Positions 1-14,370 of a stretch of DNA of 21,707 nucleotides are shown one piece after another. Source of the DNA: Promethearchaeota archaeon (lineage in GTDB: Archaea; Asgardarchaeota; Lokiarchaeia; Sigyniarchaeales; SOKP01); NCBI GenBank assembly GCA_048937405.1, contig JBHLNF010000024.1, forward strand, positions 1 to 21,707. The letters run 5' to 3'. Below the pieces are notes generated by a model. The model saw nothing but the letters and a program-made list of their open reading frames with translations. It did not search any database and had not been told where the DNA came from. Position 1 is the stretch's first letter; each line of letters starts with the position of its first letter. A program made the position numbers and the translations under genes.

Positions 1-504
1 AGAAGAGTAATAACGGGTCATAATGACGAGGGTAAATCAATTGTAGCTTATGACGGGCCCCCTATCAAATTAAGAAGTTTATTTGAGATGTGGGTCACAG
101 ATAGTTCACCTGCAGATAATAAGCATAAAATTGATGCTGCTAAGCGAAAAGTAAGACTTGAACCTCCGCCAAATGGTTCCATATTTCGATTCTTTAAGAT
201 ATTTTCTGAAAATCCATCAATATCAACTGAGGAATTGGAAAAGGACATAGCTACAAGATTTGCTGCTATGGATGCGACTCATTGTCGTATAGATACTTCA
301 AGAAGTCCTGGTATGCATAAAACTAAAACGATCGATTATATAATATTGCTAGAAGGAGAAGTTACACTCCTCTTGGATGAGGGTGAGGTGGATTTAAAAC
401 CATTTGATGTGGTAATTCAACGGGGTACAAATCACGCTTGGGTTAATAAAGGCTCTAAACCCGCTCTTTTAGCCGCAGTCTTAATAGATGCTGAACCAAT
501 TTAA
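1..504 (+). CDS. Cupin domain protein (5'-partial, starts upstream of window)
   Basis: The frame is open from base 1 (RRVITGHNDEGKSIV..., a typical N-terminus for this cupin family). Cupin motifs MHKTKTIDYIILLEGE and GTNHAWVN; stop TAA at 502-504. Confidence 0.9.
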   Translation, partial: RRVITGHNDEGKSIVAYDGPPIKLRSLFEMWVTDSSPADNKHKIDAAKRKVRLEPPPNGSIFRFFKIFSENPSISTEELEKDIATRFAAMDATHCRIDTSRSPGMHKTKTIDYIILLEGEVTLLLDEGEVDLKPFDVVIQRGTNHAWVNKGSKPALLAAVLIDAEPI

Positions 505-529
505 TGTTATTTTATTCAAATTTTTTTAC

Positions 530-580
530 CAAAACAAGCAAAAGAAAGCCCTTCCCTTTAGGGATGGGATGGATTTTGCT
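530..580 (+). repeat. IS left-end subterminal hairpin (TnpA recognition site)
   Basis: CCCTTCCC/GGGATGGG stem with one T-T mismatch (549-568), preceded by AAAG. Outer AGCAAAA/TTTTGCT pairing at 537-543/574-580. Confidence 0.85.
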
Positions 581-643
581 GTGAACATCATTAAATCATT
601 TCAGTCTATCTTTTAAAATAGGTAACATAAGATACTACTTATA

Positions 644-1894
644 ATGCTTCGTATCAACATCTTAGAACTGAACCCTTCCACCCAACAGAGGAAGATTCTT
701 AGCAAAATGTTGGTAAGATCTAGTGCCATTTGGAACCTAGGGAATTATGCAAGGCGACAAGCATTCTTTCATAAAGATATAAAGAGTCCATCTTATTATG
801 TTCAATGTAAAGAACTAAAGAACAACGATCTTTATAAATCGTTAGGATCCGCATATTCCCAGCAATTTTTAAAGAAATTGGATAAATCATGGCAGTCATT
901 TTGGAATTCTTTAAAATCTGAGAATATTGCACATAAGGTATCAATCCCTCGCTATTTTAAGAATTATAAGACTAATCAAACACTCCCTAAATTATTGATT
1001 TGTCGAAACGATTGTTACCATATTGATCGGGATTATATTTATATTTCTTGTTCCAAGGACTTAAAGGAAGAATATAGAAGGAAAGGACTCATGAAAATAA
1101 GATATAAAGGCATAAGAAAATGGAAGGGAGAGCAAAAGGCTATGGAGATTAAATATATTCCCTATATTAAGAAATTTTATGCGTATCAGACTGAAGAGGT
1201 AGCTTCTACGCCCATAGACTTTGAAGAAGAGAATATTTGTTCTATCGATTTGGGAATTAAGCGATATCTTACCACCTACATTAAAACCTCTGAAGATATC
1301 TCTCTTATCTATGAATCAGGGCATATATTTCAAGAATATCTCATTCTTTCAAGAAGAATCGCCTCTTATCAAGCAAGAGCTAAAAACGAGAATAACACCT
1401 ACACTACTCATAGAATTAGGAGATTATATCTTAAAAGAAGACGAAAACTCCATAACTATCTTAATAATATTGTGGCACATTTATTTCGGAAATTGAAGCA
1501 CTATCAGGTCTCTAAGGTAGTAATCGGAGAATTAAAAGGGATTAGAGATTCTCAAATTCCCTCCTATTATAAAAATAAGAAAAAGATCAATGAAATGATT
1601 CAAAACTTCTGGTCAGTTGATCTTTTAAAAAAAAAAATAAAAAATAAATGTGAGGAGTTTGGAGTTGAACTTGTGGAAGTCGATGAAGCCTATACATCTT
1701 CTACTTGTCCCATGTGTAATAAGAAGGTCCGTCCGAATGATAGAATGTTTAAGTGTCCTCATTGTGGGTATAAGCAAGATAGAGATGTGGTAGGGGGTAT
1801 TAATATTCTTAAGAAATATTATCATGATCATCAGATTGATGATGTAAGGGTAGAGAACTATCCTTTAGTGTCTACGATTCTCATTGAATCATAG
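644..1894 (+). CDS. tnpB: RNA-guided endonuclease TnpB (IS200/IS605 family)
   Basis: 416 aa. N-terminal 'ELNPSTQQ' segment, RuvC-I SIDLG, RuvC-II VIGEL, EAYTSSTCPMC...FKCPHCG zinc finger, RuvC-III DRDVVGGINI. All three acidic catalytic residues are present. Confidence 0.95.
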   Translation: MLRINILELNPSTQQRKILSKMLVRSSAIWNLGNYARRQAFFHKDIKSPSYYVQCKELKNNDLYKSLGSAYSQQFLKKLDKSWQSFWNSLKSENIAHKVSIPRYFKNYKTNQTLPKLLICRNDCYHIDRDYIYISCSKDLKEEYRRKGLMKIRYKGIRKWKGEQKAMEIKYIPYIKKFYAYQTEEVASTPIDFEEENICSIDLGIKRYLTTYIKTSEDISLIYESGHIFQEYLILSRRIASYQARAKNENNTYTTHRIRRLYLKRRRKLHNYLNNIVAHLFRKLKHYQVSKVVIGELKGIRDSQIPSYYKNKKKINEMIQNFWSVDLLKKKIKNKCEEFGVELVEVDEAYTSSTCPMCNKKVRPNDRMFKCPHCGYKQDRDVVGGINILKKYYHDHQIDDVRVENYPLVSTILIES

Positions 1895-1953
1895 GGACTA
1901 CGAATCCATACCCGATGAGGAATGGTAGTTCAATTCTTTTTTAATACTAACAT
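1801..1953 (+). ncRNA. Predicted omegaRNA/reRNA of TnpB (scaffold ~1801-1933, guide ~1934-1953)
   Basis: Consecutive hairpins at 1801-1821, 1827-1843, 1846-1865, 1866-1900 and 1906-1925 overlap the tnpB 3' end and run to TCAA. TnpB reRNAs are known to derive from this position. The 5' boundary is uncertain. Confidence 0.7.
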
Positions 1954-2136
1954 GCGATTCTCACATATATTCTCATACCATTTCTTATTTTTACGAAGTT
2001 CTGAAACAATATTCATACACATAAATTCCTTGTAATTGCTATATTTTTCTGGTAATTCGTTTTCTACTGATGGCATTCTTTTTATAACTTTTCTTTTTAG
2101 TTTATCTTTTTCACATAACCTACATTTTACTTCCAT
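1930..2136 (-). CDS. Small Cys-rich putative zinc-ribbon protein (68 aa)
   Basis: MEVKCRLC...FMC...ICENRM. AAGGT SD lies 7 nt upstream of the ATG. The TGA stop lies inside the IS right end. Confidence 0.65.
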   Translation of the reverse strand: MEVKCRLCEKDKLKRKVIKRMPSVENELPEKYSNYKEFMCMNIVSELRKNKKWYENICENRMLVLKKN

Positions 2137-2576: not shown

Positions 2577-2717
2577 ATGTCTCATAGAAGTTATGGCAAT
2601 AGAACGATGCACAAAGCTACATGCGCTAATTGTGGAAAGGAGTGCGAAGTTCCATTTAAGCCTACGGAAGGCAGAGATGTTTATTGTCGAGAATGTTATA
2701 GAAAGCATAGAAGATAA
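2577..2717 (+). CDS. CxxC-x17-CxxC domain small zinc-finger protein (46 aa, absent from the ORF track)
   Basis: Translation MSHRSYGNRTMHKATCANCGKECEVPFKPTEGRDVYCRECYRKHRR* matches the family pattern CxxCG...VPFKP..GR.VYCxxC. GGTGA SD at 2568-2572. Confidence 0.93.
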   Translation: MSHRSYGNRTMHKATCANCGKECEVPFKPTEGRDVYCRECYRKHRR

Positions 2718-9663: not shown

Positions 9664-11184
9664 ATGAAACAAACCATAAAATTTCGTTTATATCCAACCA
9701 GCTCCCAGGAGCATCAATTACACAATATTTTTACAATCTATAACAAAATTAAGCGAATCGGATATAAATTATTTTATGAGCTAAGAGAGATTGATTTATC
9801 TAAAAATGAAAAGCGTAAAATTGTCCAACCTCACTTAATGGAACTTTGTCAGAATAATCCTTATGTAAATAGCATTCTAATCGACTGTGAAAAAAGATTA
9901 GCTCAACAAGAAGCGTGGCTTGAAAAACGAGCAAGATTCCTCATAAATCAAATCGAAACAATTAAAAATGAAATAGCACGGATAGTGGAAAAGGATAACA
10001 AGGATAGAAGATTAAAAGGACTTTATTCTCGGTTATCCTTTGCGCAAAACAAATTAGATATTTTGCAATTTAAGCCTGTTGTATTTGGTACAAAGAGATT
10101 ATTTAGAATGCGAATTTTACGAAAGATGACCAGAAAAGAATTTAGATTCAAAAGAGATTCTTCATTTTGCTGTATAGGAAAGAAGCAAGGGATTAATTTA
10201 AATTTGAAAATCCTTCCAAACATGACTCTCAAAGTAAGGACGTTCTCTAAAGAAAAGGAAAAGAAATGGCTAATTATCCCCTTTACAGTTAATTACATGC
10301 AAGAAAAGTGGTTTGATGAAATACTTGATTTAGAGCTTTATCAAGTTGAAGTAGTAAGGAGGATTAATAAAGGAAGAGTCCTCTGTTTCGCACATATTAC
10401 CTATGAAATTCCAGAAGAAGAGCCACGCCATGGATTTGAAAACGGAGCAATTGGGCTTGACATGAATTATAATTTTGCTTGCCTTAGTAATGTGGATATA
10501 CGAGGGAATTTTAAGAGCTTTCACGAAATCCACTTCAGAAATTTACACTCATATCGTAAATACAAACGTACCGATTATATTAATTATAAGATGGAAAAGG
10601 TGGTAAACTATTGTTTAAATAAGAAGAAAGGACTTGTTATTGAAGATCTTTTTTTTGAACAAGAATTCTCTTATGGGAAAAAACGAAATAGAAAGTTCAA
10701 TAATTTCAAAACATCAGCGTTAGACTTATTAGAACGAAAATGTCTTAAACGAGGAGTTTCAATTAAAAGAGTACATCCAGCATACACCACATTAATTGGT
10801 AAATATAAATATTCACAATTATATAACTTCTCTACTCATATATTAGCAAGTTATGTAATAGCTCGAAAAGGTCTGGGGTTTTCGGAAGAGATTCCCGTCC
10901 GTTACAAGTGGGTGCTTGCACAAGTCGGGGACGCGATAAAGCCCCGTTTGAAACCAAGCAGTCCCTACCGTGATTGGGCAAAACTTCACGACTTTTTCAA
11001 GCATAGCGGGATAACGTCCTTCAAGACTTCCAAAGTAATGCAAAAAACATTACAAATGAAGCATGTCTTGAACTCGGTAACGAGCGAACAGCCTGATAAC
11101 CTTAGGGTTGGCCTTTCCTCTTCAGGAAAGATTGATAATTGGAATAAATTTTGGAAATTTATAGAAATTACCAATTTTTTATAA
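9664..11184 (+). CDS. tnpB: TnpB-related RNA-guided nuclease family protein (zinc-finger-less, RuvC D-E-H type)
   Basis: 506 aa. KFRLYPT N-terminus, VVFGTK, RuvC-I IGLDMN, RuvC-II LVIEDL, VHPAYTTLIGKYKY, STHILASYVIARKGLG. Confidence 0.88.
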   Translation: MKQTIKFRLYPTSSQEHQLHNIFTIYNKIKRIGYKLFYELREIDLSKNEKRKIVQPHLMELCQNNPYVNSILIDCEKRLAQQEAWLEKRARFLINQIETIKNEIARIVEKDNKDRRLKGLYSRLSFAQNKLDILQFKPVVFGTKRLFRMRILRKMTRKEFRFKRDSSFCCIGKKQGINLNLKILPNMTLKVRTFSKEKEKKWLIIPFTVNYMQEKWFDEILDLELYQVEVVRRINKGRVLCFAHITYEIPEEEPRHGFENGAIGLDMNYNFACLSNVDIRGNFKSFHEIHFRNLHSYRKYKRTDYINYKMEKVVNYCLNKKKGLVIEDLFFEQEFSYGKKRNRKFNNFKTSALDLLERKCLKRGVSIKRVHPAYTTLIGKYKYSQLYNFSTHILASYVIARKGLGFSEEIPVRYKWVLAQVGDAIKPRLKPSSPYRDWAKLHDFFKHSGITSFKTSKVMQKTLQMKHVLNSVTSEQPDNLRVGLSSSGKIDNWNKFWKFIEITNFL

Positions 11185-12319: not shown

Positions 12320-13459
12320 ATGGCGGAATATGATTTTACTTATAAAATAATACTTTTTGGAGACGCATCAGAGGGAAAGTCATATTTTGCGAGAAGTTTT
12401 TGCAATCAGTTATTTATGAGTGATACAGGAATCACTATTGGTGTTGATTTTTTTGTTCGATTGATCGAAATATTTGGAATAAAGGTTAAATTTCAAATTT
12501 GGGATATCTCGCCGGATGAAAGGTTTAAATTTTTAATTCCAACATATTGTAGAGGTGCCAAAGTAGGTATAATAATTTATGACGTTACAAATACAAATTC
12601 TTTAACTCATATTCTTGAAAATATTCAGGTAATAAGGCAAGGGGCCGGAGATATTCCAATTATGATAGTTGGAATCAAATGCGTAGAAGATCCTCAAGAA
12701 AATACAAGACTTCAAGAAATACAAACAGGCTATTTAGAGAATGTTCAAAATGCTGAGATTTTTTTTGAGAACGTAGCAATAAACTTAATTGAAGGATTTA
12801 GCTCAGATATTATAACTATAAAAAAACCTATAGATATAAAAAGAAAGTCATATAGAGAAAAATGGCCTGAATTCAGAGTAAATAAGTACTTGACTCTCAG
12901 GTTAGAAAATAATAGAACCAATATTTATGTTGGTAGAAAATTATTCAATCAATGTAAGTATTTATTATTAAACATTGCTCGAGACAGATTTGAAGATTAT
13001 GATGAGCTTGAATCTATCGATGAAGCCTCAGAGAAGCTTGATGATTCAATGCATGGTTCAAGTTTCCAAAAGAATTATATATCTCCTGAGGTAGAATTTT
13101 GGGGACATTGTTCAAATCTACAAGCGTGGTATGAAAATAACTACAACACACGATTATTGCATAGAAATTTATCATTTTCTTTATTAGAAGCTCTAATGAA
13201 AGTGGGAGATCCCCTAGCAAAAAAGGTATTTAAAGAGGAAATTGCGGAGAGACTTGAGAGTGGTTATCCGTCCGTGGTTATGTACCTAATAAAACAAAAT
13301 TATTTAAAATATTTAACTCAAGAGGAATTGCAAACTGTCTTTGAAAATACTAAAATTCAAAAGGGTTTATCAAAATGGTTTGAAGATTCAAGACTTATTC
13401 CGAGATGGTTATCTCTAAAAATTAAATCTGAATTGAAAGTTCAGAAGTTATGGAAATAA
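12320..13459 (+). CDS. Rab-like small GTPase domain (degenerate) fused to an uncharacterised 'EFWGHCSNLQAW' domain
   Basis: N-terminus: GDASEGKS, TIGVDF, QIWDISPDERF, YDVTN. C-terminus: EFRVNKYLTLRLEN...FNQCKYLLLNI...SIDEA...EFWGHCSNLQAW...RLLHRNLSF...GDPLAKKVFKEEI. Confidence 0.88.
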   Translation: MAEYDFTYKIILFGDASEGKSYFARSFCNQLFMSDTGITIGVDFFVRLIEIFGIKVKFQIWDISPDERFKFLIPTYCRGAKVGIIIYDVTNTNSLTHILENIQVIRQGAGDIPIMIVGIKCVEDPQENTRLQEIQTGYLENVQNAEIFFENVAINLIEGFSSDIITIKKPIDIKRKSYREKWPEFRVNKYLTLRLENNRTNIYVGRKLFNQCKYLLLNIARDRFEDYDELESIDEASEKLDDSMHGSSFQKNYISPEVEFWGHCSNLQAWYENNYNTRLLHRNLSFSLLEALMKVGDPLAKKVFKEEIAERLESGYPSVVMYLIKQNYLKYLTQEELQTVFENTKIQKGLSKWFEDSRLIPRWLSLKIKSELKVQKLWK

Positions 13460-13815: not shown

Positions 13816-14370
13816 ATGTATGATGCAATTTTAAAAACTGTCATTTTGGGCGATGTTGATACTGGTAAAACAACTCTAATACGAAGGTTTATCACAAACA
13901 AATTCAATCCAGGTTGTATGAGCACAATTGGCATTGATTTTCAAACTAAAGATTATGAGCTTGATGGATCTGAACTAAAGTTAATGATCTGGGATTTTGC
14001 GGGACAAAGAAGATTTCATTATATGTTTCCTAAATATTTATATGGTGCCTTAGGAGGAATTTTAATGTATGATATCACAAACTACTCCTCCTTTTCTCAT
14101 ATTGGTAAATTATTATCACTCGTCCAAGAAACGAATCAATCTTTACCATTTTTATTAATTGGTTCAAAGTTGGATTTAGAAGATGTTAGAGAAGTTCCTA
14201 AAGAAGTTGGATGGAGAGTTGCCAAATCAATGGGATTAAATGGATTTATAGAATGTTCCAGTAAAACTGGTGAGAACGTCGAGCTCGTATTAGAAACATT
14301 AATGCGATTAACTTTAAATAATATGTTAATCAATAAAGAAAAAATAATAGAAGTAGAAGGCATACCTTAA
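13816..14370 (+). CDS. Rab-like small GTPase (Ras superfamily)
   Basis: G1 GDVDTGKT, G2 STIGIDF, G3 WDFAGQ, G4 GSKLD, G5 ECSSK. No C-terminal prenylation Cys. Confidence 0.95.
   Translation: MYDAILKTVILGDVDTGKTTLIRRFITNKFNPGCMSTIGIDFQTKDYELDGSELKLMIWDFAGQRRFHYMFPKYLYGALGGILMYDITNYSSFSHIGKLLSLVQETNQSLPFLLIGSKLDLEDVREVPKEVGWRVAKSMGLNGFIECSSKTGENVELVLETLMRLTLNNMLINKEKIIEVEGIP

Follow-up and report, generated by a model that had tools for sequence, protein, structure and literature searches.

Does a mobile element that has landed on the stop codon of a host gene, and provides that gene with another one, follow a strategy for entering genomes without harm, or is the stop replacement a consequence of how its ends are cut and joined? 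The question is raised by an insertion near the start of a contig stretch of 21,707 nucleotides (the window) from a Promethearchaeota archaeon, whose relevant features are listed in Table 1. The stop replacement is real, recurrent and backed by an empty allele, and it most likely emerges as a side effect of a mechanism already known.

Table 1. Features of the insertion locus, in window coordinates.
Feature	Position	Strand	Basis or remarks
Cupin_2 domain gene, 5' end beyond the window	1..504	+	PF07883, E 7e-8; stop TAA 502-504
Target and left cleavage site TTTAC, host DNA	525..529	+	minus strand reads G-TAA-A
tnpB-only IS200/IS605 element, 1404 bp	530..1933	+	two sister copies with the same ends; joint omitting exactly 1404 bp
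Left-end guide AAAG (545-548) and subterminal hairpin (549-568, loop TTTA)	545..568	+	sequence, fold, covariation
tnpB, 416 aa, RNA-guided endonuclease family	644..1894	+	NF040570, PF07282, PF01385
Right end: guide GAAT (1902-1905), hairpin (1906-1925), cleavage site TCAA (1930-1933)	1902..1933	+	conserved in ~280 relatives
Element-supplied third base of last codon (T, 1933) and replacement stop TGA (1930-1932)	1930..1933	-	sequence
68-aa host gene, four conserved Cys	1930..2136	-	homologs in same-genus genomes; no curated family
Predicted omega-RNA guide (right flank)	1934..1953	+	antisense to the last codons of the host gene; inferred from known TnpB architecture (PMC10097598)

The host gene codes for a protein of 68 residues and had its original stop TAA at 526-528 of the minus strand, within the TTAC at 526-529. 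In its present state it ends with AAG AAT TGA (LKKN*), the stop being read from the TCAA that terminates the element, while joining position 529 to position 1934 in silico gives AAG AAG TAA (LKKK*). The original prediction held that this junction rebuilds the empty site and that the two states differ only in the last residue of the protein. Both statements are borne out, the latter by the sequence itself and the former by an empty allele found exactly as predicted in run X4, in which two contigs carry the joint 529 to 1934 and skip exactly 1404 bases; these contigs fit a precise excision as well as a site that was never occupied. Run X4 comes from study P2, the three best holders from study P1, and X4 also carries the filled left junction. 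Among the listed holders of the locus there is no RNA run. The predicted junction is real, and LKKK* became LKKN* through the insertion. The homologs found in other GTDB species sit next to other genes, and the comparison with an empty allele is limited there to the coding end. A variant joint, 528-T-1934 (TTAT), is present in run X4 on a contig of ~97% identity, whose minus strand reads AAG AAA TAA and also codes for LKKK*. This related strain has TTTAT at the site, where an element with an AAAG guide should not insert, and the variant might represent an escape from a TnpB that depends on TTTAC.

The 68-aa ORF is regarded as a real gene because homologs, on whose existence the prediction had depended, occur in 8 of 36 same-genus genomes (64-82% identity). 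They end with LKKK*, LKKR* or a few residues further on, and two of them finish with AAG AAG TGA (LKKK*). The conserved cysteines are at positions 5, 8, 40 and 58 of a protein for which no Pfam, NCBIfam or Atlas family was found. The label zinc ribbon, initially given to this gene, was not adopted: it lacks a Pfam or NCBIfam match, though the four cysteines are kept. The cupin gene and the 68-aa gene are convergent and, when recomputed, their stops are 21 bp apart in the empty allele, in agreement with the first reading of the locus; this cupin gene is not a conserved neighbour elsewhere, in other species. A 46-aa CxxC-x17-CxxC protein that scores above the cut-off of TIGR04272 is encoded at 2577-2717 (+) of the window, in divergent orientation to the 68-aa gene.

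The boundaries of the element, initially drawn at 526-1956, were corrected on the basis of two sister copies from the same genome (C7 and C28). They are full length, 1404 bp long, 92-93% identical to the copy under study, preceded by TTTAC and terminated by TTCAA, and since they share both ends amid unrelated flanks these ends define the element. It has neither terminal inverted repeats nor a target duplication. The TTAC first proposed as target is present where it was placed, but it is only part of the full target, which is the pentamer TTTAC: a T is found at -5 in 49/49 left ends of the family, 50 left ends show TTTAY, which is thus the strict target, and TTTAC precedes 3/3 full-length copies in this genome. 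The left hairpin has a predicted fold of -10.5 kcal/mol (z -2.5). The right hairpin is damaged in this copy, with a loop GATG instead of TTTA and two mismatches, and is intact in the sister copy; such damage may have immobilised this copy. Note that the damaged hairpin is also devoid of the second in-frame TAA that intact copies have five codons past the TGA. The fixed left-flank target, the absence of duplication, the subterminal hairpins and the pairing guides assign the element, by its sequence, to the IS200/IS605 family with IS608-type ends and, as a tnpB-only copy, to the IS1341 type. Sister copy C7 (L022, right end at C7:341931) abuts a convergent Cys-rich ORF of 76 aa, touching its TAG stop with a gap of 0 nt, and that stop is not replaced. 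Partial or gene-less family copies lie at C11:17379, C21:21625 and C25:176948 of the same genome (G000). With the last one (L122, ~190 bp) the genome has another swap, from TAG TAA to TAT TGA.

The tnpB gene is the sole ORF between the element ends. Its product scores 174 bits against NF040570 (cut-off 100) and features the RuvC-like motifs IDLG (D202), GEL (E296) and DRD (D379/D381), which start at residues 201, 295 and 379. The family score, the RuvC D-E-D triad and a zinc finger place it among RNA-guided TnpB proteins. The element itself has no tnpA, and PF01797, the Y1 TnpA family, has no match in this assembly. An ORF of 120-150 aa, Y1 TnpA-like by its DH(V/I)H motif, is present in seven members of the family that share the right end. 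Combined with TTTAC, the predicted guide in the right flank would point to the empty allele. The terminal TAGTTC can pair with GAACTA at 1855; in a pooled test across the family, pseudoknot partners of the terminal GTTC did not outnumber control 4-mers, and an Rfam search gave no meaningful match for an omega-RNA. The left end is separated from tnpB by only 114 bp. An identity as IStron was rejected, as Rfam gave no match to a group I intron at the left end within positions 400-2300. A second, atypical TnpB-related ORF of 506 aa is found at 9664-11184 (+) of the window, with HTH_OrfB_IS605 and weak TnpB matches below the family cut-off.

Relatives of the element are found mostly in Promethearchaeota, the Loki-type Asgard archaea. 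Guides and cleavage sites covary within the family, on the left (AAAG with TTTAC in 37 cases, AAAA with TTTAT in 26) as on the right (GAAT with TCAA in 282, GAAG with TCAC in 12). Gene-less derivatives of ~45 to 450 bp, including single-hairpin forms with a deleted core, share the ends of the element. Genome G074 harbours about two dozen single-hairpin mini-elements of 45-60 bp, many of them near-identical (e.g., L520-L545), in which the left guide, AAAG or AAGG, is joined directly to TCAA of the right end. They resemble the core-deleted PATEs of Haloquadratum and look recently mobile.

The recurrence of stop swaps was assessed on 379 distinct right-end sites collected from genomes and metagenomes. 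Those of low GC that had a flank of 300 nt or more were kept, 322 in all with the window's own site excluded; 34 high-GC metagenome sites of the first set were set aside because the gene model, a codon model trained on the 3776 genes of this genome and used for classification, was unsuited to them. The right end lies at the stop of a convergent gene in 30/322 sites (9.3%; 16/171 in the first set and 14/151 in the later one), the swap target being seen directly in 5 cases and assumed in the others, most of which come without an assembled left end. Exact swaps account for 25 of the 30, tandem stops with gain of a Tyr for four, and one site rebuilds TAG. In two of the exact swaps the end mutated later and the frame extends five codons to the TAA of the hairpin loop. 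Among the swap genes that have a homolog in this genome, 21/23 are full length, ending within 6 residues of the homolog. The protein is unchanged in 11/30 swaps, the other 19 being not silent. The MITE-rich genome G074 has 3/91 swaps (3.3%), about the non-coding expectation, against 27/231 (11.7%) in other hosts. A one-off coincidence, an alternative the prediction itself had named, or mis-drawn boundaries therefore have next to no probability left: the swap is seen in just one of the three full-length copies of this genome, but the exact empty junction came from the run of a second study and the 30 further cases are spread over two sets.

How far these numbers exceed chance depends on the null, and all nulls rely on a simple gene caller and are drawn from a single genome or from the neighbourhood of insertions, while the site counts include related genomes that are not fully independent and pattern searches that favour well-preserved ends. 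Swap positions make up 0.9% of all TTTAY sites, which gives a 9.8-fold excess; the enrichment over genome-wide motif sites that the prediction had anticipated is thus present. As a test of strategy the genome-wide TTAC null was rejected: it cannot part targeting from the purging of genic insertions. Insertions inside genes are depleted ~9-fold and therefore all harmless classes are inflated in the genome-wide null. Among non-coding sites the swap share is 4.1%, corresponding to a 2.4-fold excess (p 9e-6). Compared with same-orientation sites 0-120 nt past the stop of a convergent gene the excess is 1.4-fold with the own-genome null (p ~0.02) and 1.8-2.1-fold with a host-locus null from fetched loci (p ~1e-4). 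With a promoter-safe null the expectation moved only slightly.

Most telling of these comparisons is the mirror control. The left end lies 0-60 nt after the stop of a co-oriented gene, where a swap is impossible, in 31/113 cases, and these mirror-orientation sites are filled at a relative rate of 8.6x, swap sites at 8.9x. Antisense insertions that fall out of frame within the last 15 codons amount to 0/67 two-flank sites versus 218 per 10,000 available; L162, of which only the right flank is at hand, looks like an insertion of this type. The replacement stop makes a harmful position safe, yet no safer than the best ordinary positions.

These results make it probable that the swaps are a by-product of the TnpA pairing code combined with the survival of harmless insertions, and not the outcome of homing to stop codons. 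The element would be an ordinary non-autonomous member of the IS200/IS605 family that uses the IS608 code. By the known mechanism, a Y1 TnpA provided in trans would have pasted the single-stranded element 3' of TTTAC without duplication. Since the left and the right cleavage site each pair with a guide located at the base of a hairpin, both read T-Y-A-N, a form whose reverse complement contains TAA or TGA in one register. When the TTA of the target is an in-frame TAA, TCAA therefore puts TGA in the same register and leaves the last codon as it was except for its third base. The earlier proposal that the TTAC/TCAA pair permits an almost costless entry at a G-TAA stop accordingly holds and extends to A-TAA, and the swap recurs among the 322 sites. 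Insertion would be near-random among TTTAY sites, harmful events being removed by selection, and harmless swaps would accumulate among the survivors at a rate like that of other safe 3'-end sites; the rates are those counted above, with selection as their presumed cause. The fall of the enrichment from 9.8- to 2.4- and 1.4-fold as the null tightens counts for the by-product reading, which leaves the 1.4-2x excess over same-orientation neighbours without explanation.

It is quite unlikely that stop swapping is instead a selected trait, in which TYA ends derived from transposase chemistry were kept or favoured as they turn stops into harmless sites, and which would aid the spread of TTTAY/TCAA families in compact, TAA-rich genomes. 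TAA makes up 72% of the stops in this genome, every end variant seen retains the property (targets TTTAC and TTTAT, ends TCAA and TCAC), the loop of an intact right hairpin offers a second in-frame TAA, and the missing out-of-frame antisense insertions indicate that the replacement stop matters for survival. The prize for selection is small, however, with harmless target space growing from 18.4 to 19.2% (TTTAC) or 27.7 to 28.9% (TTTAT), a gain of about 0.75-1.25 points or ~4% relative. The end bases are already fixed by guide pairing, base triplets and the omega-RNA pseudoknot, most swaps are not silent, and ISDra2 combines a TCAA end with a target where premature stops would arise. The built-in safe-harbour strategy first suggested for this locus is not supported, given the merely 2.4-fold excess over non-coding sites, the equal filling of mirror sites, a motif pair that is the textbook IS608 code and a TTCAA end common to ISDra2.

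A true bias of insertion or retention towards gene 3' ends or stop codons could account for the residual 1.4-2.1x excess and for the clustering of both orientations near 3' ends. It might operate through single-stranded DNA exposed at transcription termination, which would favour TnpA integration, or through guides from coding sequence that would improve re-copying of the element into the empty allele by TnpB. Elements with a recognisable tnpB C-terminus do show more swaps, 5/31 (16%) versus 25/291 (9%) for the rest, but the difference is not significant (p = 0.19). No base preference is seen in the right flank, G074 has no excess, and selective avoidance of promoters predicts the same clustering, sites near gene starts being depleted; such a bias looks improbable as well. 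It is doubtful that TTTAY/TCA(A/C) IS200/IS605 elements have evolved stop replacement as a property or that they preferentially land or persist at stops. Were it so, they would insert harmlessly by a route that needs no splicing, with the last codons of the host gene in the TnpB guide.

The end code is that of IS608 (ISHp608) from Helicobacter pylori, with CL TTAC, GL AAAG, CR TCAA and GR GAAT (PMC5934647, PMC3201880). The element shares its cleavage and guide tetranucleotides, its subterminal hairpins, its lack of inverted repeats and of target duplication, and a precise empty joint that retains TTAC. It differs in that the copy here has no tnpA, that the family needs the pentamer TTTAY and has a TTTAT/AAAA branch, and in its Asgard host. 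Guide pairing and base triplets hold the end bases within the TnpA complex (PMC5934647), and the terminal bases of ISDra2 are in addition part of an omega-RNA pseudoknot (PMC10097598). ISDra2 of Deinococcus radiodurans (PMC2806898, PMC10097598) likewise has a GAAT guide, a TTCAA end and a TnpB with an omega-RNA from the right end and flank, but its target TTGAT (PMC2806898) does not read as a stop on the other strand, and its end would introduce stops there instead of replacing them, which argues against an end shaped for stop swapping. IS1341-type elements and PATEs of archaea are similarly tnpB-only with near-terminal palindromes and have gene-less derivatives; they were described in haloarchaea, and the accessible text of that report holds no stop-codon overlap (PMC3119063).

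IStrons (PMC4227781; bioRxiv 10.1101/2023.11.20.567912) derive from IS605/IS607 and their insertions are likewise harmless to host genes, but they avoid harm by splicing, whereas no group I intron match is found here. RU/ERIC MITE-like repeats of enterobacteria (PMC2759123) are also small mobile elements that occur fused to the 3' ends of genes, at the stop codon. In their case the normal stop is lost, the protein gains tens of residues and the transposition chemistry is another one, while protein length is kept here. Stop-codon replacement is not mentioned in the accessible text of the IS608 papers PMC3201880 and PMC5934647, and a literature search that included few subscription papers found no report of it for IS200/IS605 elements. 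It is apparently an unreported consequence of the IS608 end code, present at ~9% of the surviving insertions in Loki-type Asgard genomes, and on present evidence a neat by-product and not a new mechanism. Should targeting or selection be shown, it would be a second route of harm avoidance besides IStron splicing. The last residue changes from K to N, E to D or L to F, or a Tyr is added, and the genes stay full length with a stop borrowed from a mobile element, which bears on the annotation of element boundaries and gene ends.

A sense-orientation counterpart is seen at the left end of L250, where the host gene ends with TTT TAT and the first bases of the element, TAA TAA, replace the stop that came after TTTAT in the empty site. 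Further along the window, 12320-13459 and 13816-14370 (+) hold two small-GTPase-like ORFs with Rab-like motifs recognised by eye, one of them with a long carboxyl-terminal extension; such ORFs are typical of Asgard archaea.
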